Source: a virus. Taken from it: DNA of 64,000 bases. The notes below the pieces were generated by a model. It was not told where the DNA came from. It did not search any database and saw only the letters and a list, made by a program, of their open reading frames with translations. This document shows, piece after piece, positions 1 through 61,980 of the stretch. The position numbers and the translations under genes are program-made. The stretch lies in IMG/VR virus record IMGVR_UViG_3300047560_001345; one strand, 5' to 3'. Numbering within the stretch: the stretch's first letter is position 1; each line of letters begins with the position of its first letter.

Positions 1-2423
1 CTGGACCGATACCGCGGCAAACTCTCTTCCTCTTCATCCTTGGTCGTACCAATAAACCCACCCTGACGGAACCGCATCAGCGCCAAGCTTACGCAGTCCA
101 CAAAGTCGTCATGCCGACCAGAGGGGAAGCTCGCCACCTCATCAATCAGCTCATCCGCCCACCGGGTCTGGGGCGCCCAGACCTTACCGGAAGCAAAAAT
201 ATCCGCCACGGCGTTGAGCCGGGTGATCTTGTCGTTCCCTCTCGTCGGGGTAAACTCCCCAACCGGTACACCCATCCGACGCATCTCGTAGATGAGCGGG
301 GCCCCAGATGCTTTTTTCTCAATGATGACCGAGTCTGGTTCCCATTCCTCGTAGTACTCCAAGAGCCGCTCCTTCAACACAGGAAACTCCATGCGCTCCC
401 GGTACGCATCAAGCAACATGAGGTTAGGCTGCCCGTCATCCTCATCATTGTTCCACACACCGAACACCACAATGGCCGAGTAGTCAGCACTGTTCTTCTT
501 CTCAAACGCCGTATCGAGCGTCATCAAGATAAAATCCGGCGGGGGCGGGTTCTTATGAGGCCATTTTCTCCACCAGTCGCGCTTGATGATGGCATTGGTT
601 TCCGAGGTCGGCTGTTGTTGGTACTGCGCAGCCCACTTACTGGGTGGAAGCTCGGCTTTGACCGCCTGCAACTCCTTCAGCGACCAAAATTCCGGCCAGA
701 GAGGTCTCTCGTTCAGCTCACCCTCGTTCATGATCGCCGGAAACTCAATAACCTCCCACTTATCCCCACCCTTCTCGATCGAATGCTCGAGAATCTGCCC
801 TGTTAAGTCTCGGAGCGACCAGCGGGTGTTGTGGCTTACAACGCCATTTGCAATGAAATTTTCGGTGCGATCGATCTCAACATCAAAAACTTCTTCCTCC
901 CCATCAGGAGTTATTGAGACTATCGGGTCCGCTGTGAAGTCTGAGATACGCTGCAGCTCGTTCAAGTATTGCTGCTGTCTTACCATAGCCAACGGCGAGA
1001 TTGCAGTCGTTGCAGAGGAGACCCCGAACTTTTCCAGTGTCGTGACAATGGTCAATGCACAGTTTGCCGCCCCAATGGGCCCGAACATTGTCTCCGGGCA
1101 GATTTCCGCATACTGCGCATCTGCCCCCTTGCTTTTTGAGCAGTGCTGAATACTCATCAAGCGTGATTCCATACCGGCTTTTGACCCGACGTGCGCGGCG
1201 CTGCTCTGCGGTCCCTCTTCCTTTTCCGTCCGCCCAATACTTTTTTGCGTAATGGTTTTGGCATAACCCGTCACAGTGCACAGGCTTCTCGCAATCCGGC
1301 TCAGCGCACGTTTTACCTTTCCATTTTCCGTGGTGCCCCGGCCCTCGTCTTGGGGCATTTGGGTTTTTGCGGTGGTAGCTGTCGCTGGCTTGGCAAGGTC
1401 CGCACTTTCCGGGTTTGGTTTTTGCTCGCGCAGGCCGGTTGCACCCTTCAACGATACAAGTAAATCTCCCCGCCGTAAGTTCCTTAATCTGGTCCATTCG
1501 AGTACCCCTTCGTTCATTATGAGAAACGGATGTCTCTCATTTGCTCGGAGTATTCTACCAGATTGTGTTTGTATCTTGTATATGGAATCAACACCATTTG
1601 ACTGCCAATTATTGACCTTACTGGTCGTCAATCTGCCATTGTCGAAGGTAGCCACCAGATCGCCGGAGCGCACATCCCGCAAGGGTCTCTCTTCCCCGCT
1701 GGCCATCAGGACCGGGGTGTCTCCGGTCATACACATAACAATCACGATGGCCCCGCCCGGCTGCAGACGCTGGCGTGGGCCTGATGTGTACCAGCTAAAG
1801 ACTTTATCGTAAATTTCAGGGTTGAACTGGGCTAGGACCGCCTCACCTTCTGAGTGGGGATCGTCAATAATGAGTAGATCAGCGCCACGGCCAGTAACAG
1901 TACCGCCCACGCCAGCAGCAAAATACTCCCCACCATGATTTGTATTCCACCGGCCAGCAGCAGTAGAGTCCTTCCGAAGCTCGACCGCTGGAAAAATCCT
2001 TCTATAGTCATCTGAATCCACCAAGTTTCTGACTTTACGACCAAACCCTTCTGCCAGCTCACCCGTATTGGATATCTGCATGACTTTTCTTTTGGGGAAC
2101 CGCCCAAAAAACCAGCTTGGAAGGAGGTAGCTGGCAAATTCTGATTTGGTGTGTCGAGGCCCCAGATTGATAATCACCCGTTTGAGCTCGCCATCAGCGA
2201 TGCGTTCAAAGATTTTGGCAATTCTCCGGTGGTGGGCGCCCGAAATAAAATCTGGCCAGACCGATTCCACGTAAGGAATGAACTCTAGCTGCGCCCTCTC
2301 CCGGGTTTTTCGGAGGTTGATCTCGGCCATTAAAGATTCAAGCCGCTTCCGCTGCTCGACGCTGGCAACGCTTAACAGCGCCTCATATTCCTCAGGTGTG
2401 ATGTCCTCAAGCTCAGCCAGCAT
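1..2423 (-). CDS. terL: Terminase large subunit (T7 gp19-like), interrupted by an intein. The 3' end runs off the window start, so the gene is partial.
   Basis: The minus-strand frame (codons at plus positions 3k) has no TTA/CTA/TCA from 2462 to 1, i.e. more than 800 stop-free codons. It is absent from the ORF track because there is no stop in the window. Translation gives MLAELEDITPEEYEALL... with a P-loop-like INLGPRHTKSEF, Walker B GADLLIIDDPH, and the nuclease-domain end ...FPSGRHDDFVDCVSLALMRF. Plus ORF 111..806 is its antisense shadow. The start could instead be M at 2330. Confidence 0.8.
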   Translation of the reverse strand, partial: MLAELEDITPEEYEALLSVASVEQRKRLESLMAEINLRKTRERAQLEFIPYVESVWPDFISGAHHRRIAKIFERIADGELKRVIINLGPRHTKSEFASYLLPSWFFGRFPKRKVMQISNTGELAEGFGRKVRNLVDSDDYRRIFPAVELRKDSTAAGRWNTNHGGEYFAAGVGGTVTGRGADLLIIDDPHSEGEAVLAQFNPEIYDKVFSWYTSGPRQRLQPGGAIVIVMCMTGDTPVLMASGEERPLRDVRSGDLVATFDNGRLTTSKVNNWQSNGVDSIYKIQTQSGRILRANERHPFLIMNEGVLEWTRLRNLRRGDLLVSLKGATGLREQKPNPESADLAKPATATTAKTQMPQDEGRGTTENGKVKRALSRIARSLCTVTGYAKTITQKSIGRTEKEEGPQSSAAHVGSKAGMESRLMSIQHCSKSKGADAQYAEICPETMFGPIGAANCALTIVTTLEKFGVSSATTAISPLAMVRQQQYLNELQRISDFTADPIVSITPDGEEEVFDVEIDRTENFIANGVVSHNTRWSLRDLTGQILEHSIEKGGDKWEVIEFPAIMNEGELNERPLWPEFWSLKELQAVKAELPPSKWAAQYQQQPTSETNAIIKRDWWRKWPHKNPPPPDFILMTLDTAFEKKNSADYSAIVVFGVWNNDEDDGQPNLMLLDAYRERMEFPVLKERLLEYYEEWEPDSVIIEKKASGAPLIYEMRRMGVPVGEFTPTRGNDKITRLNAVADIFASGKVWAPQTRWADELIDEVASFPSGRHDDFVDCVSLALMRFRQGGFIGTTKDEEEESLPRYRS
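828..1733 (-). mobile_element. Intein (302 codons) in TerL ATPase motif III (extein ...GGAIVIVM|TRWSLRDL...)
   Basis: In-frame with terL. Block A CMTGDTPVLMASGEERPLRDV begins at Cys codon 1733..1731. Block B is ...TQSGRILRANERHPFLI. Blocks F/G are EEEVFDVEIDRTENFIANGVVSHN, ending at Asn codon 830..828, followed by Thr (+1). Confidence 0.75.
904..1497 (-). CDS. Endonuclease VII-like (HNH-related) nuclease with N-terminal CxxC zinc modules. Free-standing ORF nested inside the intein in a different reading frame.
   Basis: Core RYGITLDEYSALLKKQGGRCAVCG...LCIDHCHDTGKVRGLLCNDCNLAVG matches the Endonuclease_7 family. N-terminal modules are CIVEGCNRPA...CGPCQ and CAEPDCEKPVHCDGLCQNHY. Own SD GAAGGGG sits 7 nt upstream of ATG 1497. 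The frame is bounded by a TGA at 1539..1537 and a TGA at 906..904. Register is 3k+1, whereas the intein/terL register is 3k. Confidence 0.8.
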   Translation of the reverse strand: MDQIKELTAGRFTCIVEGCNRPARAKTKPGKCGPCQASDSYHRKNPNAPRRGPGHHGKWKGKTCAEPDCEKPVHCDGLCQNHYAKKYWADGKGRGTAEQRRARRVKSRYGITLDEYSALLKKQGGRCAVCGNLPGDNVRAHWGGKLCIDHCHDTGKVRGLLCNDCNLAVGYGKTAAILERAAAYLRLHSGPDSLNNS

Positions 2424-2910
2424 TCGGCACTCGCTCCGCTTTCCCTTCGATCGTCTTTGCCTTCAAACTGGCAAACAACGCCTTGAGTTCCTGATTTAGC
2501 TCGTCATCCGACTTGGTCGTAATGCTGATTTCCTTCTTCTCCACCATCAGGTTGACCACACTGGACTTGGCCAGTGAATCAAGCGCCGATTTGGATACTT
2601 TGGGGTCAGGGTCTTGGGACTGCCGATACCACTGCGTTAGCACGTAGTTTTGCCACTGCTCTTGCGTGACTGGCATATCGAAATCGTACTGGCTAAACGC
2701 ATTTCGCAGGTAGCGTTCCGCGACGGGGGAAGGAGCGGGCTCAGTCTTCTGTCCTTGCTCCACAGTATTGTGGACCCACTCGATGTCTTCTTCAGACAGA
2801 GGGCCGGCGCTTTCTTCAGGAATGATGCCTTCCTGAAACGCGCTCATAGCAAACACCGCACTCGTATGTGCGGGAGGGACTCGACCGATGGGGATTTCAA
2901 AGTCTTCCAT
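2413..2910 (-). CDS. Hypothetical protein; positional candidate for terminase small subunit
   Basis: Track ORF 2413..2976 starts at a TTG; the first ATG is at 2910 (MEDFEIPIG...). It lies immediately upstream of terL and overlaps it by 11 nt. No recognisable motif. Confidence 0.3.
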   Translation of the reverse strand: MEDFEIPIGRVPPAHTSAVFAMSAFQEGIIPEESAGPLSEEDIEWVHNTVEQGQKTEPAPSPVAERYLRNAFSQYDFDMPVTQEQWQNYVLTQWYRQSQDPDPKVSKSALDSLAKSSVVNLMVEKKEISITTKSDDELNQELKALFASLKAKTIEGKAERVPNAG

Positions 2911-2972: not shown

Positions 2973-3470
2973 TCAACCTGAAAAATGGTACTCACCAAAA
3001 AGCTTTTGCGCTTCAGCGCAATAGGCGGCATGGGCTTCTTCGGCTGTTTTATAACGCCCAATGTTGATCCGCTTTCCTTGCACACGGATTCTTGCCCGAT
3101 AGGTCCCACGTTTACTTTCGTATTCAACCCCTTTCATTTTTGTTTGGTTTCTTGGGTCGACTTTTTTGTTGGCGTTTTGTTGTGTTGGTGAAGCTTCTCG
3201 CAGGTTTTCTATGCGGTTGTCTTGCGGGTTGCGGTTGATGTGATCAATTGATTTAGGTAGGTAACCCCAATGCCATAAAAACACAAGCCGATGGGCGCCT
3301 CTAGATACGGTGTTGTTGAAAAGATCGATATGCCAATAACCGTCTTTTTTTGCGTAGCCTGCGCGTTTGCCCGCGTGTTGATTGTTTGCCGCGGAAGTCC
3401 AGATTAAGAAACCTTCAGGGTCATAAGTGAAAAGTTCTTTGAGTAGGTCTTGAGTGATTTTGTAATCCAT
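2973..3470 (-). CDS. HNH-AP2 homing endonuclease
   Basis: HNH_3-like HRLVFLWHWGYLPKSIDHINRNPQDNRIENLR plus a C-terminal AP2-like YRARIRVQGKRINIGRYKTAEEAHAAY. Paralogue of 22948..23421, 28041..28529 and 47118..47630. Confidence 0.8.
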   Translation of the reverse strand: MDYKITQDLLKELFTYDPEGFLIWTSAANNQHAGKRAGYAKKDGYWHIDLFNNTVSRGAHRLVFLWHWGYLPKSIDHINRNPQDNRIENLREASPTQQNANKKVDPRNQTKMKGVEYESKRGTYRARIRVQGKRINIGRYKTAEEAHAAYCAEAQKLFGEYHFSG

Positions 3471-12510: not shown

Positions 12511-12767
12511 TGGGCTCCAAGTTCAGCGGACGAGTGTTCTGTGAACAGGATATCCAGATCATCACCGAAGAAGTGTTGTTCCTCGTAGAGGGTGGGTTTA
12601 GACCCCATGACAAGGCTCATGTCCTTGGAGGGCTGGAGTATGCACTGGACAACATGAGTATCGAGGAGTGGAGGGTCTGGCTACATTACCCCCTGAGAAA
12701 AATCATAACCGATCTAACCAAACTAGGAGAGCAACATGAATGTAAAGCTGGTGTCGCTGACGCCTGA
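12510..12767 (+). CDS. Hypothetical protein
   Basis: TAATG overlap; the 32-nt overlap with thyX is tolerated. Confidence 0.4.
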
Positions 12768-13359
12768 TGCTGAAAAGCAGATCGCCTATTGTGCAAGGGT
12801 GTCATCACCCAACCAAGATAACCCGGAGTATGCAAAGCTCCTTGCTTACTGCATTCAGCACAAGCACTACTCGATCTTTGAACAGGCGTTCATGTCAGTC
12901 GAGATTGAAACGACCCGGATGATCTCAGCGCAGATCCTGCGCCACAGATCGTTCACATTCCAAGAGTTCTCTCAGCGGTATGCAGAGGCGCAGCACTTTG
13001 AAATCTACGAGGCACGCAGGCAAGACAGCAAGAACCGGCAGAACTCTATCGATGACCTGAGCCCTGAGATTAAGGCCGAGTGGCAGGCCCGGCAGCTAGC
13101 CAACTGTGAACGGGTAGTCGCTGATTATAACTGGGCACTGGAGAATGGGGTCGCAAAAGAATGTGCAAGGGCTGTACTTCCGATGCAAACTGTGACTAGA
13201 CTATATATGACGGGGTCGATTCGATCTTGGATACATTACCTTGAAGTGCGGTGTTCACCCGATACTCAGCTTGAGCATCGTGTCATTGCGCTAGAGATTA
13301 AGAAGATTTTTGTGCAGTCCTTGCCTGTGGTAGCAGAAGCATTGGGCTGGACGGAGTAA
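12736..13359 (+). CDS. thyX: Flavin-dependent thymidylate synthase ThyX
   Basis: ThyX signature [16 protein letters not shown] (RHR...S...SxR); SD AGGAGAG. Confidence 0.85.
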
Positions 13360-14047: not shown

Positions 14048-14217
14048 GTGATGAAGATATAACCAATATCGGGATAGAGGTCATTGACCTCTTACACAGC
14101 AAAGGGCTTTCTGTAGAGCAATCGGTCTACATACTGGCTGATCTTGTGGCCACTGGGGTTAAAACCATTGGACTGCATGATGTGACCGCAAACGATAGCA
14201 AAGGAGACTTTGAATGA
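14044..14217 (+). CDS. Hypothetical 57-aa protein (GTG start) VSDEDITN...KGDFE
   Basis: SD AAGGAGAAG then GTG; duplicated 24-nt junction GGAGAAGATAA(A/G)TGAGTGATGAAG. Confidence 0.35.
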   Translation: MSDEDITNIGIEVIDLLHSKGLSVEQSVYILADLVATGVKTIGLHDVTANDSKGDFE

Positions 14218-15092
14218 TTCAGACAGTGGGTGGGATTCTTTTGGTGGCGCTGATGTTGTTCGGACTCTCGTCCTGCGACAAAGTGCCGGCGGGTCATGTG
14301 GGGGTGTTAGTGCATCTCCTTGGGTCAGATAAAGGAGTCGATGCGGAGGAAGTGCCCGTGGGGCGCAAGTGGGTTGGGATCAATGAGGAGCTTTACCTGT
14401 TCCCGACCTTTACGCAGAACGATACTTGGAATAAGGAACTGTCCATTACGTTTCAGACAAAGGAAGGGTTGAACGTCAATACGGATCTAGGCATCAGCTA
14501 CCACGTCGACCCGAAGAAGGTCACGCTGGTGTTCCAGAAGTACCGCAAGGGTATTGAAGAGATCAGCCATATCTACCTGAGGAACATGGTGCAGGATGCA
14601 CTGGTCCGCGCCGCCTCCGTCAAGGATGTAGAGACCATCTACGGGCAGGGCAAGACGGAACTGTTATCAGAGGTAGAGGGCGTAGTCAGGGCTGAAGTTG
14701 GCGACATCGGGATTGTTGTCGAGCATATCTATTGGGTGGGAACCCTCCGGCTTCCTGACAACGTAGTCGCAGCAATCAACGCCAAGATTGGCGCAACACA
14801 AATGGCGGCACAACGTGAGAATGAAATCCAGCAGACTAAAGCAGAAGCGCAGAAAGCCATTGAACAAGCGCGTGGTGAGGCTGAATCTAAACTCGCTATT
14901 GCGAGAGCGAATGCAGACGCCGTACGTCTTCAGGGCGATGCTGAGGCTGAAGCAATTAATGCAAAGTCCAAGGCGCTTACTGCGAATCCGCAGCTTGTCC
15001 AATATGAGATCGCGCAAAAGTGGAATGGTGAACTGCCGACGACTACGTTTGGCGCGTCTTCGATTCCGATGTTAAGTCTGCCGACTAAATAA
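14214..15092 (+). CDS. SPFH/band-7 (HflK/C, YqiK-like) membrane lipoprotein
   Basis: Signal/lipobox LFGLSSC; band-7 core; C-terminal Ala/Glu-rich coiled coil AQRENEIQQTKAEAQKAIEQARGEAESKLAIARANADAVRLQGDAEAEAINAKSKAL. Confidence 0.7.
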   Translation: MIQTVGGILLVALMLFGLSSCDKVPAGHVGVLVHLLGSDKGVDAEEVPVGRKWVGINEELYLFPTFTQNDTWNKELSITFQTKEGLNVNTDLGISYHVDPKKVTLVFQKYRKGIEEISHIYLRNMVQDALVRAASVKDVETIYGQGKTELLSEVEGVVRAEVGDIGIVVEHIYWVGTLRLPDNVVAAINAKIGATQMAAQRENEIQQTKAEAQKAIEQARGEAESKLAIARANADAVRLQGDAEAEAINAKSKALTANPQLVQYEIAQKWNGELPTTTFGASSIPMLSLPTK

Positions 15093-20825: not shown

Positions 20826-21126
20826 AGGCGCCGTCAAGGCGGATGTTAAGAAGACCCTTGAAGAATACGGGGTTTGGTTCTTCATGCCTGCAACGCATGG
20901 CTACGGTCGGTCAGGAGTGCCAGATTTTATTTGCTGCTTCCTTGGGTTCCTAATTGCCATCGAAACGAAGGCAGGGGATAATGCGCCTACCTTGCTTCAA
21001 CAGCGAGAGATACGACGAATCAAGGATGCAGGTGGATATGCGCTCACGATCAATGAGGCCAATCTGTCTGACCTCCGGCAACTCTTGAACGAGATCCAAT
21101 CCGATGCCAGACATCATCACAGTTGA
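20809..21126 (+). CDS. VRR-NUC domain nuclease (PD-(D/E)XK fold)
   Basis: GVPDFICCFLGFLIAIETKAG...LLQQREIRRIKDAGGYALTI matches the VRR-NUC pattern GxPD...ExK...Q. Confidence 0.6.
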   Translation: MAKTPEGAVKADVKKTLEEYGVWFFMPATHGYGRSGVPDFICCFLGFLIAIETKAGDNAPTLLQQREIRRIKDAGGYALTINEANLSDLRQLLNEIQSDARHHHS

Positions 21127-22951: not shown

Positions 22952-23421
22952 AACCTCTCGATTACGAAGCATTAGGCCTTATCATCGACCCGGAAAAAGG
23001 AACGATTCATAGGCTAATAGAGTGCGGAGGCCGCGCTAAAGACAACGGCTATGTGCATATAAAGCTTAATGGCCGAACCTATTGCGCGCATCGTGTAATT
23101 TGGGAATATAAATTTGGCCCAATCCCACATGGAATGCAAATAGACCATATAAACGGAGTGCGAAACGATAATAGGATAGAGAATCTTAGGCTAGCAACCC
23201 ATGCGCAAAATGCACAGAACAGAAAGCTACGCACTGATAACACATCGGGGCATGTCGGTGTCACTTACAAAAAGCAAAGCCGTCGATGGGAAGCAAGAAT
23301 AGATGTCGATGGAGAGCGCATAGTACTGGGTTTCTTTCTGACTAAAGAAGAAGCGATACAGGCTAGAATTGCAGCTAAAGCTAAACTGCACTCATTTAAC
23401 CCTGTGGAGCGTAACAAATGA
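22948..23421 (+). CDS. HNH-AP2 homing endonuclease
   Basis: HRVIWEYKFGPIPHGMQIDHINGVRNDNRIENLR plus an AP2-like C-terminus. ATGA overlap with the pol stop. Confidence 0.8.
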   Translation: MKPLDYEALGLIIDPEKGTIHRLIECGGRAKDNGYVHIKLNGRTYCAHRVIWEYKFGPIPHGMQIDHINGVRNDNRIENLRLATHAQNAQNRKLRTDNTSGHVGVTYKKQSRRWEARIDVDGERIVLGFFLTKEEAIQARIAAKAKLHSFNPVERNK

Positions 23422-24086: not shown

Positions 24087-24333
24087 GCCTATGAAGATTG
24101 ATGGCTTCGATGCTGCTATCATTGGCACAACCGATACATGGTTGCCTACCCCGAAGATTGTCTATGACGGCCAGAAGATTCTTGATATCCTCATGAATCA
24201 GGGTTTGACAGACATTGAGGCCCTTGAGTACTGCGCTTACAACATTGAGGGCGCATATGTGGGTGAAGGCACGCCTTTGATCGTTTGGCCTTATGAGGAA
24301 GAAGACGATGCCGACACCGAAAGAGAAGCGTAA
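24079..24333 (+). CDS. Hypothetical acidic protein
   Basis: Track ORF. Confidence 0.4.
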   Translation: MDEPMKIDGFDAAIIGTTDTWLPTPKIVYDGQKILDILMNQGLTDIEALEYCAYNIEGAYVGEGTPLIVWPYEEEDDADTEREA

Positions 24334-24801: not shown

Positions 24802-24848
24802 GCTCGATGGAAGTCGCGCCCCCTAAGGGCGCAGCAACAGGAGAACAT

Positions 24849-47117: not shown

Positions 47118-47630
47118 CTAGTCTCTGGGTTTAGGTTGAAAAGGCCATAAACGCTTTTGCGCCTCTAACCTAGCCGCGTAGGCTTCTTCCGCGGTATCGA
47201 AATAACCTAAATTATATCTGCGACCGTTTGCACAAATACGGGATAAGAATTTATTAACAGTTTTGCTGAAGCAAACACCAGCGTAACCTACTGAATTATT
47301 CTTATACGTTTTTAAGTTTTGTCCGTTATCCACGCAATTATTAGGCGCTTCTCTGAGATTGTTAATTCTATTATCGCGCCTGTCGCCGTTAATATGATCT
47401 AGCTGACATGGGGGAAAGACACCATGTATGTAAAGCCAAGCTAAGCGGTGGGCCATGTGCAGCATATTCATTACCTTAATCTGAATGTAACCATCTTTTT
47501 GATGCACTCGACCCGCTGTGCTACCTGTTTTTACACTTCCCCTACAAACCTTCCACTTAAAAATCCCGGTCAGAGGATCGTAGTCCAGAAGTTCCTTTAG
47601 TTCAGCCTGCGTGATAGACTCTTTTCGCAT
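47118..47630 (-). CDS. HNH-AP2 homing endonuclease
   Basis: HRLAWLYIHGVFPPCQLDHINGDRRDNRINNLR plus AP2-like YAGVCFSKTVNKFLSRICANGRRYNLGYFDTAEEAYAARLEAQKRL. Confidence 0.8.
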   Translation of the reverse strand: MRKESITQAELKELLDYDPLTGIFKWKVCRGSVKTGSTAGRVHQKDGYIQIKVMNMLHMAHRLAWLYIHGVFPPCQLDHINGDRRDNRINNLREAPNNCVDNGQNLKTYKNNSVGYAGVCFSKTVNKFLSRICANGRRYNLGYFDTAEEAYAARLEAQKRLWPFQPKPRD

Positions 47631-48617: not shown

Positions 48618-48857
48618 TTACTTCTTTTCTTTGGTGACGACCAAAACAAGACCAGAAATAGCCACTCCCGCAGAAGTGATCTCTTTCCAAAGCTCAGGGT
48701 CTACATTAACCCCGACGCTGACCAGAATAACGGACAGCCCATACCACGTAGATGGCTCTCTCAAACGGTCAAAAATCCAAGATACTGCAGCCATGTTAAA
48801 TCCTCTTGAGCTGAAAGTGCATTCCATCGGGTTTGGTCCACAGCCCACCCCAATCAA
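48618..48857 (-). CDS. Putative holin (two TM)
   Basis: Two hydrophobic helices plus a KEKK tail, directly upstream of the endolysin. Confidence 0.35.
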   Translation of the reverse strand: MIGVGCGPNPMECTFSSRGFNMAAVSWIFDRLREPSTWYGLSVILVSVGVNVDPELWKEITSAGVAISGLVLVVTKEKK

Positions 48858-49218
48858 AACCAGCGTCTGTGAAGCATTGTACCAATTCTGGGCTCATCGT
48901 AGGTTTCTTTCCAAAACCATTCCACGCAGCATTGATGTCTATGGCAATACCCCAAGAATGCAGGGACATGCTCACGGCACCGCGTTTGTTCCGAATGTTG
49001 AAGCAGCCGTCCCAAGTCTTAACCTGATCCGCCAACCCACGCTCGTTGATATTCTTGAACGCCTGCGCCAACGGCTCGACCATGATCTTGTTACAGTAGA
49101 CCTTTTTCGGAATAGCACCATGCTCACAGCAGGTCGGAACATCCCAGACGGTCATAAACTTTGCTTCATTAGCCGCAGGATCACCCCATTTCAGAAAGGC
49201 TTGTCTTGATGTGATCAT
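48796..49218 (-). CDS. Endolysin, peptidase M15 (VanY/L-Ala-D-Glu peptidase-like)
   Basis: SMSLHSWGIAIDIN...PDGMHFQ is a zinc-binding H-x-D...H pattern. Start at the ATG forming an ATGA overlap with the tail-fibre stop. Confidence 0.65.
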   Translation of the reverse strand: MITSRQAFLKWGDPAANEAKFMTVWDVPTCCEHGAIPKKVYCNKIMVEPLAQAFKNINERGLADQVKTWDGCFNIRNKRGAVSMSLHSWGIAIDINAAWNGFGKKPTMSPELVQCFTDAGFDWGGLWTKPDGMHFQLKRI

Positions 49219-50114
49219 TGTTCGTCCTGTATGGGTGTCCAGTTTGGTGTCTGGGCATCGTTGATGTTGGTCCAATTGGGTGTCTGCGCATCGTTGATAT
49301 TGACCCAGTTAGCGAGCTGAGCATCGGGAATCTTAATCCAACCATGCACTTCGAGATGAGTCGCAAGAGTCATCACCTCGTTATCGGAGACCACGAAGTG
49401 GGCGGTAATGGTCTGCGCCGCGGTAGCGGTTAAGTTCTCGGTGATAGTCTGTGGGAACCCTGCGCTGGCAGTATACGCGTCGCTGACGCTTTGATTCTCG
49501 TCGATAGAGAAGAGGATAACCAACCCACCTACGGCGTCTTCAAGGCTTGTAAAGGCTTCGTCTACAGACCCTACAAACTGCGCCGTGATGACGGAGTTCT
49601 CTGTCAGATCAATGTTTTCCAGCACCGTCTCAGGATACTGCGCGGTGATTCCTATGACATCTTCAGAGAGAATGTTCTCCACAATACCGAAGTACAGCAC
49701 ATCCACATGCGCGCTGGTGTCTGCCAGCGTCATGTCTTCCGTAAGGGTATCGAGGAAGTTGGATTGTTCTGTACTGCTATCCGTGAGGATGATGTCTTCA
49801 GTCCGCGAAGCGGCGAACTGCGCAGCAATGGTTTCGCTTTCACTGGAAGTGAAAGGTTCTGTCAGAGACTGAAGGAACGCGCTGGCCTGCGTGCTCGAAT
49901 CATCAGAGGTGAAGTTCTCAGTCAGTGACTGAAGAAACGCAGAGGTCTGCGTGCTGGAATCCGCAAGGGTGATGTTTTCTGTTACGGACGCTGGGAACCC
50001 CGCGGACGCTGTATAAGCATCCGCTAGAGTGATATTTTCCGATTGCGACAGGATGAACGCATTTCCCGATTGACCTGCAAACGGTGCCGCCGAGATGGCA
50101 TACCTGCCGAACAT
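49215..50114 (-). CDS. Tail fibre protein with internal tandem peptide repeats
   Basis: About 15-aa repeats xTENxTLxDxSTQxSAFLQSL; C-terminal NINDAQTPNWT repeated three times. Confidence 0.5.
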   Translation of the reverse strand: MFGRYAISAAPFAGQSGNAFILSQSENITLADAYTASAGFPASVTENITLADSSTQTSAFLQSLTENFTSDDSSTQASAFLQSLTEPFTSSESETIAAQFAASRTEDIILTDSSTEQSNFLDTLTEDMTLADTSAHVDVLYFGIVENILSEDVIGITAQYPETVLENIDLTENSVITAQFVGSVDEAFTSLEDAVGGLVILFSIDENQSVSDAYTASAGFPQTITENLTATAAQTITAHFVVSDNEVMTLATHLEVHGWIKIPDAQLANWVNINDAQTPNWTNINDAQTPNWTPIQDEQ

Positions 50115-53212: not shown

Positions 53213-53635
53213 TCAGTTAATGATGACCACCGCTGTGGTGCTCGTGTTTGGAGGGAAAGCGACCGTTACAGGTTCTAAACCATCCCAAGTGTAGGTTCCG
53301 CCGAAATTAAGAACCGCTACGGCCTTGTTTCCTTTGGATGAATTGTATACCAAGCCAGCCGCGGCTGAAATGATAGCGCCGGGCCATACAGCATTTTCCC
53401 AACTAGCATAGGCGACGGTGCCTGATTGGGTCACGCCTAAATTAGCCAGAACCGTTCCGCCTGCGGTATATCCCGTACCTGATGTCTCTCCGGCGGCTGT
53501 ATAAACCGCCGTTGCTGAACTTAGATTGGCGTTGCTCGTGTAGAGCGCCATGTAGAAAACATCATTATCAAGGTCGTGAACACCTTGCAAAATCTCTTTT
53601 TTGAAGCTAGTTACTAGCGCCTGTGAGATAGCCAT
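53213..53635 (-). CDS. Structural protein
   Basis: Position and composition. Confidence 0.35.
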   Translation of the reverse strand: MAISQALVTSFKKEILQGVHDLDNDVFYMALYTSNANLSSATAVYTAAGETSGTGYTAGGTVLANLGVTQSGTVAYASWENAVWPGAIISAAAGLVYNSSKGNKAVAVLNFGGTYTWDGLEPVTVAFPPNTSTTAVVIIN

Positions 53636-54327
53636 TAGACCACCTTATCCCTGACTTGCACAGTTCTGTAAGCATCTTGACGATCCTTACCATCACCAAG
53701 CTGTTTGAGCGGGATCATGGCTTCTTGGAACTTTGCTTGATACGACTGCAGCACATCCGCTTCGCCTTTGAGGAAAAGGTAGGCTTCCGTAAGGGCACCG
53801 TATAGCAACACGTTCGGGAAGTTCGTACTCAACCAAGTCGATCCAGCAGTCACAATAGACTGCGGATAGGCGAAGTAATGTAGCTCGATGTCGTAGTTCA
53901 CATCCGGGGTAGGCCCAAGGATGTAGGTGTTGTTGTCGAACAAAGCATAGTACTGAGGTACGCCAGTAACCGCCGGATAAGGAAAAAACTCACGGATATA
54001 ATTCACGTCCTTATTCAACAAATACCGATAGTCGTTAGGCACTAACGGCTCATCTACATTCATCACCGCGACAGAGAACGTCGCCAAAAAATCAGATGGG
54101 AGCGTCAGATAGGGAAAGTTGGCCGTAGCCGACCCCGTGACATTTTTACGAAACGCGGGGAGCTGGACCGTGTTGTTAACGAGCCGTTCAGTATCCTGCA
54201 CAAACGTCGGAATGTTGTCGACGAACGTCTGCTCATTCACTTCCGTGAATGCCTGAATAGCGTTGACCAGCCCCGCGTATGTCGTAATGTCGTAAGCAGT
54301 CATGCTTATGCCATCGGTCCTCGGCAC
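53635..54327 (-). CDS. Structural protein
   Basis: Position. Confidence 0.35.
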   Translation of the reverse strand: MPRTDGISMTAYDITTYAGLVNAIQAFTEVNEQTFVDNIPTFVQDTERLVNNTVQLPAFRKNVTGSATANFPYLTLPSDFLATFSVAVMNVDEPLVPNDYRYLLNKDVNYIREFFPYPAVTGVPQYYALFDNNTYILGPTPDVNYDIELHYFAYPQSIVTAGSTWLSTNFPNVLLYGALTEAYLFLKGEADVLQSYQAKFQEAMIPLKQLGDGKDRQDAYRTVQVRDKVV

Positions 54328-54741: not shown

Positions 54742-55130
54742 AAATCAACAGGGCCCATGACGGGCGGGACGGGACGGAAGATAGGTACAACCGAAGCATA
54801 CCCAGTTACATTTACGTTATTTAGCTCAGTATACGCTATGAGAGTCGCAACTGGATTAAATGCGAAGTCAGAACAGCTTGCATTCCTGTTTGTATCAGGA
54901 CGTGGGTTACGGAGCGCCTGAGGGTCATTCGCAGCCTTCTGGCCGCCCAAAATACCCCACCAGTATGCTTCATTGTCCCCATTCCGATAGTCTTGGCACT
55001 CTTTACAGACTTTGATGTTCTGCTGTTTGCCCAAGATATAGACGTACGTAAAGGTCCGCAGCGGGCCTCGAAACCCACATCGATCGCAGAACCCAAACGC
55101 TCGTCTATTACTAGCAAACCGAGTAGCCAT
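54738..55130 (-). CDS. Zinc-ribbon protein
   Basis: CDRCGF...CKEC. Confidence 0.35.
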   Translation of the reverse strand: MATRFASNRRAFGFCDRCGFRGPLRTFTYVYILGKQQNIKVCKECQDYRNGDNEAYWWGILGGQKAANDPQALRNPRPDTNRNASCSDFAFNPVATLIAYTELNNVNVTGYASVVPIFRPVPPVMGPVDF

Positions 55131-55828
55131 TACCAGCCACCTCCTATCCGTTGGCTTTCTGGAGGTAAGTAGTTCCGCTTAGAAATATTCACAACCGCTG
55201 GGATTACTTGAATGTTCCATGGTACATGTAGCCCGCTGACCTCTTGCCCTTTAAGCGGCACAATGTGATCTAACTGCCACGGCACCTGCGTTGCTTCAGA
55301 TCTAAGTTTAGCTAGCTCGTGTGCTTCTTTAAAGAACCATCGGTAGTCAACATCGTCACTTCTTACAGCTCTATTTTTTCTAAACGCCCTGCGCTCACTA
55401 ACGTACGCTTGTACAAGAGCTTTATTGCTTTTACGCCATTCTACACAACGAAGCTTGTTTTTTTCTTTGTGTTTAGCATAAGACTTTCTTGCCTTGGCTC
55501 GATACTTTTCTGGGTTGTTTGTGCGATCTTTAGCCTCTTGTGCACGTACTTTATCTGGGTTGTTCTTTTTCCATTCTGCTTTGCGCGCCCGTTCTTTGGT
55601 TACAAACTCGGGGTTTAGTTTGTTCTGTGCATACCGAGCTTTCTCGTATGCCAATCGCTTTTCTATGTTCTCAACGTACTTTTTATTTGCGCGTTCTCGG
55701 CTGCATATCACACATGATCCGCCTACATAACGCTCCGCTGTATGCCCTTTAGGGCAAGGCTTACCGTTGAAGTACGTCTTCAATCCTAAGCTTTTAGCTT
55801 CTGCGTTAGTTAAAACTTTATCTGCCAC
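55130..55828 (-). CDS. Zn-finger + HNH endonuclease (His-Me finger)
   Basis: N-terminal YFNGKPCPKGHTAERYVGGSCVIC; C-terminal QLDHIVPLKGQEVSGLHVPWNIQVI. Paralogue of 61384..61980. Confidence 0.7.
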   Translation of the reverse strand: MADKVLTNAEAKSLGLKTYFNGKPCPKGHTAERYVGGSCVICSRERANKKYVENIEKRLAYEKARYAQNKLNPEFVTKERARKAEWKKNNPDKVRAQEAKDRTNNPEKYRAKARKSYAKHKEKNKLRCVEWRKSNKALVQAYVSERRAFRKNRAVRSDDVDYRWFFKEAHELAKLRSEATQVPWQLDHIVPLKGQEVSGLHVPWNIQVIPAVVNISKRNYLPPESQRIGGGW

Positions 55829-56516
55829 TGATATATCCCGCCATAGGGACCATCCTTATAGGTGCTTTCTCACGATCTTCGTCAGCCGCCAGTTGCCATG
55901 CTTCATCATACATCTGTTTGAGCATCGGAATCCGATCGTAGGACTCAGGGTTCTTTATCGCCATGTGGTAAGACAGCCCAGCGATGATTGCAGGTATAAA
56001 CCTGAACGGCATGTCCAATGTATTAGAGCCGGCCTGTCCAGCGTCCTGAATTCGGCGCAGATACCAATAATGGAAAAAATACCCAGACTGATTTGGAGTC
56101 GGCCAGATATTGATTTGCGGGATCGGCGCCAAGCGATCGATCCACACCTGCACAGGGCGTCCCTGCGTCAGCTTGTTCGGAATTGCTGCATAGGTCGGAA
56201 GCGCGATGCGCGGAATGACCAGATCAACCTGATTGGCTTGGCTGCCCGGATACTGCCGGATCACCTGCTCTACGATGTCGACGCAATCTTCAGGGAGGTT
56301 GTAAGTGCCCGTGCCCTGAGTCAGAGTGATCTCAGCTTCCTCAATGGTCCAGAGGTTAATCCCTCGGTTGGCCCATTCCTGAAATAGGATATTGAGGCTG
56401 CGCCGCGCTGTCCGCCCCTGATAACCCGTACGGATCTCGAAGCCTGCGCGCTCGCAGGCCTCTTCAATGATCTCGGTGACATCAGGTGTCCAGTTAGCAG
56501 TGCCTGAAGTGGTCAT
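55818..56516 (-). CDS. Tail tubular protein A/adaptor candidate (T7 gp11-like)
   Basis: TARRSLNILFQEWANRGINLWTIEEAEITL resembles T7 gp11 [27 protein letters not shown]. Recalled from memory. Confidence 0.35.
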   Translation of the reverse strand: MTTSGTANWTPDVTEIIEEACERAGFEIRTGYQGRTARRSLNILFQEWANRGINLWTIEEAEITLTQGTGTYNLPEDCVDIVEQVIRQYPGSQANQVDLVIPRIALPTYAAIPNKLTQGRPVQVWIDRLAPIPQINIWPTPNQSGYFFHYWYLRRIQDAGQAGSNTLDMPFRFIPAIIAGLSYHMAIKNPESYDRIPMLKQMYDEAWQLAADEDREKAPIRMVPMAGYISGR

Positions 56517-57517
56517 TACGATACCTGATTAACGGTTACGATGACGGCAGGGGCTGATGGGTACGCCGGGCTTGCGCTTGGAGAGTAAGTTACAACAGAT
56601 GTATGCCCCAACGTAGTCAACCATTTTAAAGTCAGCTTGTTTAAGGTAGTCAGCGTCAAAAACAAATTCACTGTCATAATGTATGCGCCGGGATTTGATG
56701 AGCTCGCGCGAGCTGGAACTGAAGCCCAACTTGCTGAAGACGGCACATCTGTCCCATCCAGAACATACCAAACACCCGCCAAATCCTGCGCATTTTCTGT
56801 GTTCAAAAACTGAACGCTGTACTGAATATTGTACGTACCTGCTACGGCTACTGAGATTTCGCGCGTCGTCGTGTTGAGCGTAACCCCATTGCTAATGTCG
56901 CTGGTGTTGATCTGCAGGAGTGTTGATGTGTTAAGCGGAGTCGTTTGCGCCCCATTTACATAAGTTCCTGAAGTGTGTGATACGTTGCTAGAACCATTGA
57001 CACCACGAGTGCACCCAGTGAACGAAGTTGCCGTAATCCCTGTATAGGTGATAAGTTCAACGCCGATAATAATCGCGCCGGTAGCCGAAAAACCTGTTGT
57101 GGAAACCACAGGGATCGTAGTAACCGTACCGTTAATCGTACTCGTCAGTGTCGTTGAATAATCAAAATGGAACGCGCCGTACTGGGTGTTGATATCTGAA
57201 GGGCTAAGAACTTTCCAGATCGGAGCTGCGGAAGCAGAGCCTGTACCCGTTTGTGTCAGGAACTTCTGGGTCGTAGTAGTGTTGCCGGAGAGTTTGGACA
57301 GCGTGTTCGTAGCGGACGCGTAGAGCGTGTCGCCCAACGTGTAGGAAGTGACATTCGTACCACCCTGAGTCGTAGTGACCGGATGAACATTCAGAGTCTG
57401 CGCGACAAAATTGGTAACTGTCGTCTGAACATTAGCGCCAGATTGAACCAATGGAACAATTTCCGTACCGTTTAAGGTAGCGGCATTGGTCATTGCTGAG
57501 ATTTTAGTGTCGGCCAT
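56516..57517 (-). CDS. Tail spike/fibre-like structural protein
   Basis: Thr/Ser/Asn/Gly-rich 333 aa. Confidence 0.4.
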   Translation of the reverse strand: MADTKISAMTNAATLNGTEIVPLVQSGANVQTTVTNFVAQTLNVHPVTTTQGGTNVTSYTLGDTLYASATNTLSKLSGNTTTTQKFLTQTGTGSASAAPIWKVLSPSDINTQYGAFHFDYSTTLTSTINGTVTTIPVVSTTGFSATGAIIIGVELITYTGITATSFTGCTRGVNGSSNVSHTSGTYVNGAQTTPLNTSTLLQINTSDISNGVTLNTTTREISVAVAGTYNIQYSVQFLNTENAQDLAGVWYVLDGTDVPSSASWASVPARASSSNPGAYIMTVNLFLTLTTLNKLTLKWLTTLGHTSVVTYSPSASPAYPSAPAVIVTVNQVS

Positions 57518-57520
57518 TGG

Positions 57521-57748
57521 TTATGACTCCAAATAGATTTTGCTGCCATCCTCCTGCAGCACGTACCCTGAGTTTTCCATCAGAATAAAATAATTCACTA
57601 CCGGGATAGGCGAGGCGTAAAGGTCAACAACCCCATGATCCCCTACATCATCCCCAAAACTGTCGACATTGTTCGCAACCACACTGATCGCAGTGCCTCG
57701 CGATGTATTCGCAAGATTGGCAACTCCAGTGTAGCCAACGTAAGCCAT
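57521..57748 (-). CDS. Small structural protein
   Basis: Track ORF. Confidence 0.3.
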   Translation of the reverse strand: MAYVGYTGVANLANTSRGTAISVVANNVDSFGDDVGDHGVVDLYASPIPVVNYFILMENSGYVLQEDGSKIYLES

Positions 57749-58038
57749 TAGTTAGGGCCTGCCTGAATAACCGTCAGCGTAGCCGTACCGCCGCCAGAAT
57801 TCACCGTGAGGCGGATCTGAAGGACCGGAAACGCATAATTACCATCCTGCGCCGTAGTCTTAGACGCGATCGTCGGATGATCGTACCAATTCGTACCATC
57901 AAAGGTATGCTGAACCGTGTAATTCACGGTTCCTGAAACCGCAACACCAAAGCCGACATTAAACGGTGAGATGTAGGAAGAGACTACGTACCCATTGGTA
58001 GAGCCCGTGCCGGTTTGTGAGAGAGTAACTGGACGCAT
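57748..58038 (-). CDS. Small structural protein
   Basis: Track ORF. Confidence 0.3.
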   Translation of the reverse strand: MRPVTLSQTGTGSTNGYVVSSYISPFNVGFGVAVSGTVNYTVQHTFDGTNWYDHPTIASKTTAQDGNYAFPVLQIRLTVNSGGGTATLTVIQAGPN

Positions 58039-58046
58039 GATCTACC

Positions 58047-58322
58047 TCAGCAATTCCAAGCCCGCAGGCTTTTGTTAATACGACTGTTTGGGTCATTCGC
58101 TGTCTTGCTTGAAGTCAGCTTTTTCTTCATCCCCGACATCCGGGCGCAGAATGATTTGCGTCGTCCTGTGTCTTCCTTAGTCTTGGGTTTTGGCGCCGGA
58201 GGCTTCAGGTTCATCCCCTGCTTCTTGGCGGAGGCGCGCCCCTTAGCGTTCAGACCGCCTTTTTCAGATTGGCCCTCTTTACGCTGCCACGCTGGTGTTC
58301 TAGCCATTATTATGCTCCACAA
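58047..58322 (-). CDS. Small basic Lys/Pro-rich protein (family member C)
   Basis: MARTPAWQRKEGQSEKGGLNAKGRASAKKQG... Confidence 0.35.
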   Translation of the reverse strand: MWSIIMARTPAWQRKEGQSEKGGLNAKGRASAKKQGMNLKPPAPKPKTKEDTGRRKSFCARMSGMKKKLTSSKTANDPNSRINKSLRAWNC

Positions 58323-58851
58323 CGGCCTTACATAAGTTCATAAAATCAGAAACCGACAATTCGTGTTTTGCCACATTGACCATGCGACAGACTAATTGCA
58401 CATTACCTACTTCGTAACCTAAATCAGAGTCAATCCGATCAAGACTACAGTTAGTGTGCACGCGGCCTTTTCCAAGGTCCATAGTCATAGGCCACCCTGT
58501 AACCGCGCAGCAGCCTTTTTGCGCAAACCACAAGAGCTCCAAGGCGTCCAAAGATATGACTTCTGCTCCCTTTTTACGCCCTATGGCTTTGCTGCGAAGA
58601 TATGCTAGATAGTTTCTAGCGGTCTTTGTCCGCTTAAAATTTGTAAATTGAAGCCGTTCGGCACCCCAAGTACGCTCGTGGTATGACGACTGCTTTACCG
58701 AAATGCAGGTTTTGCACCATGAATTATACTTAGGCTCCCCCGAGACTTTTCGGCCCGTAGTGTAAAAGTCAGAAATATGCTTAGCCTCGCCACAATGGGT
58801 GCAGGCTTTGACTTGCTTGTGCTCATCAACCCAAACTAGCGGCTTAGCCAT
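58300..58851 (-). CDS. HNH endonuclease with N-terminal Zn finger
   Basis: CTHCGEAK...CKTC; HNH core GKGRVHTNCSLDRIDSDLGYEVGNVQLVCRMVNVAKHE. Confidence 0.7.
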   Translation of the reverse strand: MAKPLVWVDEHKQVKACTHCGEAKHISDFYTTGRKVSGEPKYNSWCKTCISVKQSSYHERTWGAERLQFTNFKRTKTARNYLAYLRSKAIGRKKGAEVISLDALELLWFAQKGCCAVTGWPMTMDLGKGRVHTNCSLDRIDSDLGYEVGNVQLVCRMVNVAKHELSVSDFMNLCKAVVEHNNG

Positions 58852-59006: not shown

Positions 59007-59467
59007 CGCTGCTGCGGCCTCTGTACAACCTGAGATGAAGGGTTACCTTGAATCTGGAGGCCCTGCGGCTGCTGAAACTGTGAAAAGCTCAAAGGCTTGT
59101 TTCCTTGCTGCTGTGGAAGACCAGAAGCTATTCCAGAAGGAGGCGCTCCCAATGGGGTCTGCATCGGTGCCGGCTGGCCGCCTACACCGCCATCACTGCC
59201 GCTGCCATCAAAACCCATATTGGCCGGAGCGTAGTCCGCGCCTGAATCAGGCCCACCATTGTACTGTGTCGACATAAGCTGCTGCGGCTGGTTCGGCTGT
59301 CCTTGCCCTTGATACTGCATGAAGCCCTGAGGGGCTGATGAATTCATCATACCCCCCGGTTGGCCTTGCGTACTGGCACCCTGCAATCCCTGCATTGTGC
59401 TCGGGATATTCGGAACGCCTGAAGCTCCTGCAGCCATTATTTGATTCCCTCGTACATAAAAGTCCAC
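59003..59467 (-). CDS. Gln/Gly/Pro-rich low-complexity protein
   Basis: QGQPGGMMNSSAPQGFMQYQGQGQPNQPQQ... Confidence 0.35.
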   Translation of the reverse strand: MDFYVRGNQIMAAGASGVPNIPSTMQGLQGASTQGQPGGMMNSSAPQGFMQYQGQGQPNQPQQLMSTQYNGGPDSGADYAPANMGFDGSGSDGGVGGQPAPMQTPLGAPPSGIASGLPQQQGNKPLSFSQFQQPQGLQIQGNPSSQVVQRPQQR

Positions 59468-60099
59468 CCTTTATGTTTATAGCCTAATTTGATAGCGCGA
59501 CATACCTTCTCGGTGTGCCCCCTAATGTATTTTGCTGCTTCTGTGAGCGTATCAAATCTGTGTGTGCCATGCTCAGGATGCGATCCGATTACCGCTCTAG
59601 CTTTTCCATTAGCTGCGCCACATCGTTTTCCTAATTGCGCTTTAAATGCCTCCGGTAGCGGACGCGCTTTAAAGATTGCACTTAATTTAGCGCGAGTTTC
59701 GTCGCTGACCACTCTGCCCGACATACGAGCTGCCTGTGCTTGCCTGAACTCTTCTGAGCGCTTTTGGCCCTTATTTTTAGCTGCGGTCCGTACATAAGCA
59801 TCGGGAGAGTTAGGGCATCCGGCCTTACCTTCACCGCCATCAGTCATATTGACCAGAGCGGCGCCCATAGCTCTAAAGCACTTTATTAATCCTTTTTCAA
59901 GCTCAAACGCAACGCTTTCAGATGAGCACTCCAGTATACCCACGCCGATATTGTCTGCGCCATATTTAACTACAGTGCGCTCATGCACGATGTTTCTACG
60001 CCCTTTTCTAAGGCTTTTGGCCCTATTTAGCGTACCTTTCCCCACGTAGAACACGCTGGAGTCTGGTTTACAATGTACGTAAGCGCACTGTCCGCTCAT
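59437..60099 (-). CDS. GIY-YIG homing endonuclease
   Basis: AYVHCKPDSSVFYVGKGT...R...E core; C-terminal repeated basic DNA-binding motifs (SDETRAKLSAIFKARP / PEAFKAQLGKR). Confidence 0.7.
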   Translation of the reverse strand: MSGQCAYVHCKPDSSVFYVGKGTLNRAKSLRKGRRNIVHERTVVKYGADNIGVGILECSSESVAFELEKGLIKCFRAMGAALVNMTDGGEGKAGCPNSPDAYVRTAAKNKGQKRSEEFRQAQAARMSGRVVSDETRAKLSAIFKARPLPEAFKAQLGKRCGAANGKARAVIGSHPEHGTHRFDTLTEAAKYIRGHTEKVCRAIKLGYKHKGWTFMYEGIK

Positions 60100-61204: not shown

Positions 61205-61400
61205 CGCCTTCATTTTTGAGGCGTATTCCACCTCCGAGGGCACCGATGATGGCGGCGATTCCGGCTCCGATCTCAAGGGGAGCAGCGCCCACCACAATAG
61301 CTGAGCCAACAAGAGCCACACCAAGAAACCCAATAATCCTAATAGCACAGAAAGTTTCATTGTCTCGCTCCGTCAGGGCTGTTTTAACCAGTTTGTTCAT
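61188..61400 (-). CDS. 70-aa membrane protein
   Basis: Gly/Ala-rich TM IIGFLGVALVGSAIVVGAAPLEIGAGIAAIIGALGGGI. Confidence 0.3.
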   Translation of the reverse strand: MNKLVKTALTERDNETFCAIRIIGFLGVALVGSAIVVGAAPLEIGAGIAAIIGALGGGIRLKNEGVDTAK

Positions 61401-61980
61401 TTCGTATCCGTTTGTTTGACTTCTTTAGGTTCTCTTCTTTCAGCAGAATCTGCAAGTTCCATGGCACATTAAGCCCGCATACGTCTTCACCCATTATGGG
61501 CTCTATATGGTCAACCTCAAACTTTCTACCTGTTTCTTTGATGAGACGCTGGGCCTCAAGATAAAGCTCCCGCACTTCTTTTTTATGTTCTGCGGTCAGC
61601 CATTTTGGTGTGGCGTGCTTATACCGTCTGCGCCTAGCGTTCGTTATTGCGCGTTTCTTTTCTGGGTACTTTTCTTCCCAAACCTTGGTGTACTTACGTT
61701 TTGCTTCGGTGGGCCGCGCCATAGCCTTAGCAATCACTACGTCTTTGTTTTGCTCATAATACTTGCGCTTGTTGTCTTTCCCGCGGTCTGACTTGTTGTA
61801 GTCAGCAAAGTAGTCTTTGCGGTTCGCATAGCTTGCTTGATGCTCCAACTTACGACACTCGACGCAGGAGCCTTTAGTCTCCCGTAGCGCAATATGGCCG
61901 TGCTTACATGGTTTGCCTGTGAAGTAGTGTTTGGCGCCTTGTGCTTTGGCGTCGGCCCTATTAGTAGGAATGCTGTTCAT
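61384..61980 (-). CDS. Zn-finger + HNH endonuclease (His-Me finger)
   Basis: YFTGKPCKHGHIALRETKGSCVEC; EVDHIEPIMGEDVCGLNVPWNLQIL. Confidence 0.7.
   Translation of the reverse strand: MNSIPTNRADAKAQGAKHYFTGKPCKHGHIALRETKGSCVECRKLEHQASYANRKDYFADYNKSDRGKDNKRKYYEQNKDVVIAKAMARPTEAKRKYTKVWEEKYPEKKRAITNARRRRYKHATPKWLTAEHKKEVRELYLEAQRLIKETGRKFEVDHIEPIMGEDVCGLNVPWNLQILLKEENLKKSNKRIRNEQTG

Follow-up and report, generated by a model that had tools for sequence, protein, structure and literature searches.

Why does a small phage genome carry homing-endonuclease-like genes in so many junctions of its essential operons, and how do these operons remain intact? The question is raised by a stretch of 64,000 nucleotides from an uncultured tailed phage (IMG/VR record IMGVR_UViG_3300047560_001345; hereafter the window, with positions counted from its first letter), which is most of a genome of ~69 kb. 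Eight free-standing homing-endonuclease-like genes and an intein in the large terminase subunit, with a nuclease gene nested in it, make up nine elements that together occupy ~5.4 kb, i.e., ~8.4% of the window, or roughly one per 7 kb. These are very probably nine independent selfish nuclease elements, spread by intron-less homing. A first-pass annotation had reported at least 10 endonuclease-like genes; all ten open reading frames (ORFs) exist where, and on the strands on which, it placed them, and nuclease-family support is found in Pfam, NCBIfam and PHROGs for nine. The nine nuclease-type ORFs and the intein amount to nine independent insertions, and ten is reached only if the intein is counted apart. 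Scanning of ~50 other ORFs of the window revealed no further endonuclease genes, and the element families are all already known, with no new class of element among them.

Mobility of the elements is seen by comparison with relatives. Megablast of 50 kb against GenBank phages gave no match, and presence or absence was therefore scored on IMG/VR loci (metagenomic relatives, given here as L numbers) instead of cultured relatives; the polymerase is at most 36% identical to that of any GenBank phage (Rhizobium and Pseudomonas phages). At least 599 IMG/VR contigs carry a capsid protein ~80% or more identical to that of the window. L014 and L248 are close relatives (major capsid protein 92% identical), and the polymerase-module relatives, L001–L005, are identical to the window at ~60% only; the primase as query returned no related loci. 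The endonuclease content of the relatives is not identical but polymorphic at every site. Base-precise empty sites exist for four elements (61384, 58300, 55130 and the intein), and two slots (post-capsid and 47118) hold unrelated endonuclease genes in relatives. Single elements also occur alone, the 61384 type in L248, the 58300 type in L250 and the GIY-YIG gene in L014, a mosaic that indicates independent gain or loss. An Rfam search found no introns in the window, which rules out group I or II introns as carriers and leaves intron-less homing, as proposed in the annotation, the best explanation of the polymorphism; ARAGORN found no tRNAs in the window. Homing may still be going on, and the slots may be recombination hot spots.

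Two elements, at 55130–55828 and 61384–61980 (both minus strand), are probable zinc-finger HNH endonuclease genes and, as annotated, paralogues (E 1e-17), with PHROG support from phrog_1035, phrog_1081 and phrog_26577 (phrog_1035 at E 2e-19 for the former; phrog_26577 at E 2e-20 and phrog_1035 at E 4e-15 for the latter). In 26 homologues the family keeps an N-terminal PC..GH...G.C..C finger (invariant C-H-C-C) and a C-terminal DH..P...N...N..K.N motif in which D157-H158...N175...N184 are invariant; several homologues are labelled McrA-type HNH by the Joint Genome Institute (JGI). The AlphaFold model of the 61384 protein (mean predicted local distance difference test score, pLDDT, 80) ends in a beta-beta-alpha element (residues 154–187, pLDDT ~80). 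The 61384 gene lies immediately downstream of the major capsid gene, in a cassette (61401–62100) of 700 bp as opposed to 65 bp in the empty allele of L014, located between the capsid-gene terminator and the start of the next gene. Part of the inserted cassette, between the terminator hairpin and the 61384 gene, is a sigma-70-like promoter (62011–62038, minus strand; TTGACA, 16 nt, TACAAT) that agrees at 11/12 positions and ranks first among the promoter-like sites of 8.6 kb. In L014, the capsid terminator is followed directly by the ribosome-binding site and ATG of the next gene. The same slot holds an 83% identical homologue in L248, and Pfam-confirmed GIY-YIG+NUMOD3 genes in L012, L015 and L016.

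The 55130 gene has entered an SU10-type adaptor gene near its 3' end, a few codons ahead of the stop, and the insertion (55145–55833) measures 689 bp against 4 bp in the empty allele of L014 and L248. It ends on the original GGTGGCTGGTAATG of the adaptor, from which it takes both its final codons (GGW-stop) and the TAATG that couples it to the following gene; the adaptor in turn gains a new short tail. Distant relatives seem to be polymorphic by 540 bp between the adaptor and the following gene, but there the adaptor gene itself is longer and nothing has been inserted. The zinc-finger domain of the two nucleases (YFTG.PC..GH...R...G.C..C; phrog_1081), which is N-terminal in the window (61801–61980 in the 61384 gene), is found C-terminally on the post-capsid GIY-YIG nucleases (L012:11323–11490 and L015:11815–11973), ~50% identical to the N-terminal domain of the 61384 protein in L012 and L015. 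It is a predicted DNA-binding module that has been swapped between nuclease classes, and the attachment of different nuclease domains to this one zinc-finger module may be a way in which fixed slots are re-targeted.

The gene at 58300–58851 (minus strand) had been annotated as a zinc-binding HNH gene. PHROGs do relate it to Endonuclease VII (Endo VII; phrog_1035 at E 4e-25, phrog_2633 at E 3e-6), and an N-terminal CxxC...CxxC is present, but the catalytic Asp-His is replaced by Asp-Arg and the family, with 178 metagenomic homologues, has only part of the zinc-binding Cys set. Alignment to Endo VII by hhalign (E 0.004) covers the segment preceding the catalytic motif and is weak, the alignments being shallow. 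The gene sits at the start codon of a DUF6321 gene, between copies of a TAATGGCTA repeat: it opens with the ATGGCTAAG that belonged to the DUF6321 gene before its displacement and closes by re-creating TAATGGCTA ahead of that gene, and the insertion (58310–58842) adds 533 bp to an empty allele of ~0 bp in L014 and L248. A homologue in the same slot in L250 is 86% identical, though the other genes of L250 are 35–65% identical. We considered L250 as evidence of co-conversion around this gene; its gene order is rearranged and DUF6321 is conserved everywhere, and the case is suggestive only. Just downstream of the DUF6321 gene, three ORFs of 333, 75 and 96 aa (56520–58036) are replaced in L014 and L248 by a single unrelated ORF of 262 aa, and homologues of the 96-aa and 75-aa ORFs are located elsewhere in L250; this mosaic boundary lies ~270 bp from the 58300 gene.

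The gene at 59437–60099 (minus strand) probably encodes a divergent GIY-YIG + NUMOD3 endonuclease. The GIY-YIG assignment made in the annotation is supported by NUMOD3 (22.3 bits, cut-off 20.4), by phrog_314 (E 7e-19) and by alignment of the N-terminal region with the Pfam-positive GIY-YIG genes of relatives, in which Y7, Y18-x-G20 and E68 are invariant; it is not supported by the Pfam GIY-YIG model, which is silent at E up to 0.1, and TIGR01453 stays below threshold (33.9 bits, cut-off 56; E 3e-8). The gene is coupled to its neighbours by overlaps, ATGA on the upstream side and TAATG on the downstream side, and among the relatives it is present only in L014 (81% identical).

The four HNH-AP2 paralogues, at 2973–3470 (minus), 22948–23421 (plus), 28041–28529 (plus) and 47118–47630 (minus), are confirmed by HNH_3 scores of 44.3–79.7 bits (Pfam cut-off 24.8; E 1.7e-14, 1.2e-22, 1.4e-11 and 1.1e-12, respectively) and by phrog_99 (E 9e-58, 5e-57, 2.5e-59 and 2e-61). 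They appear to share the two-domain architecture of known HNH-AP2 homing endonucleases (Pfam HNH_3 + AP2; phrog_99) and do share their motif, DH(I/L)(N/D)...N...N, which is present in all four copies. Unlike in those enzymes, AP2 falls below the Pfam gathering threshold (19–32.5 bits, cut-off 33.3; E 1e-7 to 1.4e-3, with E 1.1e-7 for the 2973 gene), and the co-resident copies are only 35–40% identical to one another; full-length phrog_99 matches cover the AP2 region. Within the window each gene matches only the other three. The copies are, however, nearer to genes of other phages (up to 50% identical) than to each other, which suggests that they were acquired separately and did not arise by duplication.

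The annotation had placed each of the four beside a conserved target, which holds for the DNA polymerase and the primase/helicase (DUF927, phrog_8841), holds in part for the terminase and is unsupported for a tail-tube gene. The 22948 gene lies between the polymerase and a PD-(D/E)xK exonuclease with an ATGA overlap at each end. The 28041 gene follows a terminator-like hairpin, precedes the primase/helicase gene and is equipped with a ribosome-binding site (AGGAG) of its own. The 2973 gene is the first of the late (terminase) operon, separated from the large subunit by a 187-aa ORF (2413–2976) with no family match. The 47118 gene stands between a 295-aa ORF and a gene for an 875-aa virion structural protein (phrog_3287), for which a tail-tube identity is unsupported. 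In most relatives these slots are empty or hold a different endonuclease gene. The 2973 slot is empty in L014, L020, L024 and L012, and in L016 it holds, before the terminase operon, an HNH-AP2 gene (HNH_3) of 38% identity. In L001–L005 the polymerase directly adjoins the exonuclease, and the gap before the primase measures ~200–260 bp (207–258 bp, without such a gene, in L003 and L004). In L086 (flank 79% identical), the 47118 slot is occupied by a GIY-YIG-like ORF on the opposite strand.

The ninth element is an intein of 302 aa at 828–1733 (minus strand) in the large terminase subunit, with an Intein_splicing score of 63.8 bits (cut-off 35.8). Its boundaries, read from the translation, run from Cys1 (CMTGDTP...) to His-Asn (...VVSHN), which is followed by Thr+1; the insert is an intein by its splicing blocks, and the splicing itself is predicted. 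It is exactly absent, in frame, from the terminases of L014, L016, L020 and L024, where the positions corresponding to 1734 and 827 are adjacent. Among the capsid-linked related terminases it is absent from ~41/43 and present in 2/~43, always with a nested Endo VII gene. In the window this nested gene, at 904–1497 (minus strand), is likewise as annotated (PF02945 at E 3e-20, 72.3 bits, cut-off 23.6). It is read on the same strand as the intein in frame 3 to terminase and intein (offset 926 nt = 2 mod 3).

Which of the two overlapping frames is selected? Relatives of the nested Endo VII are carried by at least 367 IMG/VR contigs. In all 80 loci that were retrieved, Endo VII lies inside the terminase intein at the same offset, and in 79/80 the terminase frame is open for ~2.4 kb while the third frame runs into a stop after tens of bases. 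The sole locus with a frame shift in the terminase, L163:4001–4663, has it in the C-terminal part of the intein, perhaps through a sequencing error or because the copy is decaying. Amino-acid identity is 59–86% in the Endo VII frame and 29–66%, often undetectable, in the overlapped middle of the intein frame, flanked by N- and C-terminal intein blocks of 63–90% and 50–98%. Nucleotide diversity at positions 1/2/3 of the Endo VII codons is 0.275/0.192/0.469 among 58 distinct sequences (0.20/0.08/0.44 in the catalytic third), and the most variable class of sites in the overlap is the second codon position of the intein frame. This order (third >> first > second) shows that the nested Endo VII frame is under purifying selection for its amino acids and that the intein frame is merely kept open. 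In 18 homologues C127, C130, D149, H150, H152, C162, N163, C165 and N166 are invariant, i.e., the zinc-binding and catalytic residues of CxxC...DHxH...CNDCN. An AAGGGG Shine–Dalgarno-like motif 7 nt upstream of the nested ATG, together with a stop codon that closes the Endo VII frame just upstream of the start in many relatives, favours independent initiation of the nested gene.

An intein of this kind has been described in a preprint by Gosselin et al. 2025, who report a non-canonical intein with an out-of-frame Endo VII-like endonuclease, with terminase as host, in Gordonia phages. The window intein agrees with it in the nuclease, in frame 3 and in the large terminase subunit as host, and the Gordonia phages named there are the best GenBank matches of the window Endo VII (~60% amino-acid identity, under the terminase gene); it differs in residing in a non-actinophage-like environmental lineage. 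The distribution of the type was called ambiguous in the preprint. The at least 367 metagenomic copies and the codon-position evidence for selection on the nested frame are new. Inteins with an out-of-frame Endo VII are common in environmental phages and not confined to actinophages, and selection on the nested frame lends support to the view that inteins gain endonucleases by invasion. In the ShiLan domain of Arsenault et al. 2025 (PMC11855218), where out-of-frame HNH insertions are hidden in phage genes, a nuclease ORF is likewise overprinted on an insertion that is open in the host frame; unlike ShiLan, the window insertion has the splicing blocks of a true intein, which explains its removal at the protein level.

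The annotation had called the endonuclease load exceptional. The density matches or slightly exceeds published highs, namely the 23 such genes that cover 7% of the ~142 kb of Pectobacterium phage CB7 and the 15 of T4 (PMC7344957), and is thus not unprecedented. Within its own lineage, however, where such genes are otherwise sparse, it is an outlier. The terminase-to-adaptor region of the window holds 6 elements in 15.5 kb (3.9 per 10 kb), whereas hidden Markov models (HMMs) seeded from the window find, as a lower bound, 23 endonuclease-like ORFs in the corresponding regions of relatives (930 kb; 0.25 per 10 kb), with no related locus having more than 3. Only a handful more emerged when 98 representatives of non-core ORF clusters, taken from 19 long loci (350 kb), were scanned against PHROGs. 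The relatives overall thus carry ~0.25–0.4 per 10 kb, and the window is ~tenfold denser in the same region.

These observations suggest the following course of homing. When the phage shares a cell with a relative in which an element is missing, the nuclease would cut the DNA of the relative at or near the empty slot. The element-bearing genome would then serve as the template for repair, by which the endonuclease gene is copied in with some flanking sequence. The eight free-standing genes would be tolerated in the junctions of essential operons in which they sit (terminase, polymerase/exonuclease, primase, capsid, adaptor and virion structural genes), their neighbours staying expressed through ATGA/TAATG overlaps, re-created start/stop signals or an own promoter or ribosome-binding site; the translational coupling noted in the annotation is seen as overlaps at six junctions. 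In the intein, whose central linker is overprinted in frame 3 by the Endo VII-type gene, cutting would be performed by the separately translated Endo VII, and the terminase would be restored through protein splicing. The window is in effect a well-resolved natural experiment in how a phage genome of small size can become saturated with selfish nuclease genes while its essential operons stay intact, and filled and empty alleles defined to the base provide a direct start for cleavage and homing assays.

Several points weigh against this reading. Cleavage activity and specificity of the nucleases are predicted, and presence or absence alone does not separate gain by homing from precise loss. The 55130, 61384 and 58300 genes have no Pfam or NCBIfam match. 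PDB sequence searches for three of the nucleases gave no match, and neither zinc-finger HNH paralogue has a PDB sequence match. Foldseek returned no significant match for the 61384 model (Colicin E7 HNH at rank 2, E 2.5), and hhalign found nothing between the DH-type HNH genes and Endo VII, the alignments being shallow. The putative GIY-YIG nature of the 59437 gene rests on sub-threshold scores and alignment. D138-R139 is invariant in 25 homologues of the 58300 gene, i.e., the canonical catalytic His is missing across the family, and the AlphaFold model of the nuclease region (pLDDT <50) is too poor for a fold search; the activity of the 58300 protein is therefore uncertain, and only by inference would the Asp-Arg variant be active. 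The members of the 58300 family may not be nucleases at all. In a tentative reading, their Asp-Arg, which is also found in a DRIDNNG-type motif of ORFs nested in polymerase and helicase insertions of relatives, could mark a His-Me finger variant whose catalysis is as yet uncharacterised. The two empty slots in the polymerase-module relatives are less informative, since these relatives are only ~60% identical, and the count in the relatives is a lower bound, obtained with window-seeded HMMs and one PHROG scan on ORFs of at least 100 aa.

An alternative that we consider unlikely is that the elements are a fossil record, i.e., that they were inherited vertically, are decaying or inactive, have been deleted in relatives, and that homing is over. 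Arg in place of the catalytic His in the 58300 family and a GIY-YIG domain too divergent for the Pfam model would fit such decay, as would same-slot homologues that are about as diverged as their flanks (81% for the GIY-YIG gene, 83–92% for its flanks in L014). Decay is, however, difficult to reconcile with nine ORFs that are all intact, with catalytic and zinc-binding residues that are invariant in the Endo VII and DH-type HNH homologues, and with the clear purifying selection on the nested frame. The empty sites are seamless and their coupling signals intact, which random deletion rarely yields. The families are also abundant in metagenomes (969 and 178 matches), and the 58300 homologue of L250 is far more similar (86%) than the other genes there (35–65%).

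It is also improbable that some of the genes are domesticated phage functions rather than selfish ones, serving either as packaging-associated HNH proteins or as weapons against co-infecting competitors or satellites. Packaging-associated HNH proteins assist terminase in cos phages, and the 2973 gene, directly upstream of the terminase genes and with a same-family gene in the same place in L016, would be the candidate; moreover, all of the genes lie inside operons whose coupling signals have been preserved. The 2973 gene is nevertheless dispensable, since L014, L020, L024 and L012 lack it with the same terminase module, and it belongs to the same HNH_3+AP2 family as the three copies at unrelated sites; every other element is dispensable in close relatives. 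That the metagenomic source contig (68,984 bp), which has no close cultured relative, is a chimera pooling the elements of several strains is hardly credible, given that an independent Logan assembly (L175, SRR35185515) has four of the genes, the 61384, GIY-YIG and 58300 genes among them, in the same order with 100% amino-acid identity, that the junctions are in-frame and coupled, and that base composition is uniform along the window.

Intron-less homing of selfish elements also has precedents. Barth et al. 2023 (PMC10448857) describe HNH and GIY-YIG nucleases beside essential genes, with unstable content at cognate slots and swapped domains. T4-like phages (seg and mob genes), ICP1 and CB7 resemble the window in that nucleases lie by essential genes, presence and absence vary, and slots are shared by classes; the density in the window is comparable to that of CB7 and above that of T4. 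In contrast to these phages, to which it is only distantly related, the window phage is smaller (~69 kb) and has no intron-borne element.

Among the polymerase-module relatives, the polymerase and helicase genes at L004:963–3659, L004:4942–7428 and L003:6735–9248 have insertions of ~0.8 kb in which the host frame is open. Each holds a nested ORF of 225–246 aa, out-of-frame on the same strand (L004 2261–3001, L004 6155–6874 and L003 8023–8700), with a "(L/M)DRIDNNG.Y.P.N" motif, and the helicase insertion opens with an intein-like "C(I/V)xYNTPVLTD". Pfam recognises neither inteins nor HNH domains in the L003 and L004 insertions. They are possible additional cases of overprinted endonucleases, and the 2025 preprint (Gosselin et al.) does not list helicase as a host. 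That overprinting is a general route by which free-standing endonucleases are paired with in-frame insertions in this phage lineage is a tentative idea, on balance doubtful.

The remaining ORF reported as an endonuclease gene, the 95-aa "mini-HNH" at 24293–24580 (plus strand), is not part of the endonuclease load. No nuclease family matches it in Pfam, NCBIfam or PHROGs, where it hits PHROGs of unknown function only. It is syntenic in all five polymerase-module relatives (52–57% identical), and this conservation at one position in 5/5 identifies it as a core replication-module gene that is not mobile. Between the exonuclease gene and this ORF, the window has an 84-aa ORF (24079–24333; phrog_13182, unknown function) that is not a nuclease by any library and has no counterpart in L001–L005, where the exonuclease and "mini-HNH" genes are 13–23 bp apart; by this comparison it is another small, lineage-specific insertion.

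A protein identical to one in the window is present on a 68,984-bp JGI contig, and the capsid gene lies ~6 kb past the terminase in relatives; from these, the genome is taken as ~69 kb, with ~5 kb outside the window. The genes form two divergent blocks, i.e., a plus-strand early/replication block (~3965 to 31532) and a minus-strand late block that runs from 64000 down to 31600 and again, with the terminase genes, from 3470 to 1. By library scan, the plus-strand block contains the DNA polymerase (21104–22951), the PD-(D/E)xK exonuclease (23418–24086), a helicase (24807–26420) and the DUF927 primase/helicase (28539–31532; DUF927, phrog_8841). The late block contains the major capsid protein (62097–63008), two SU10-type adaptors (55818–56516 and 53635–54327) and the large terminase subunit (1–2423, minus strand), which continues past the left edge of the window. 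A ThyX thymidylate synthase (12736–13359, E 1.5e-43), an SPFH/Band-7 protein (14214–15092, E 9e-21) and a Peptidase_M15_4 endolysin-like protein (48796–49275, E 8e-15) are also encoded. The late block is closed by a single ORF of 2117 aa (31600–37953, minus strand), with weak matches (24–27%) to relatives only.

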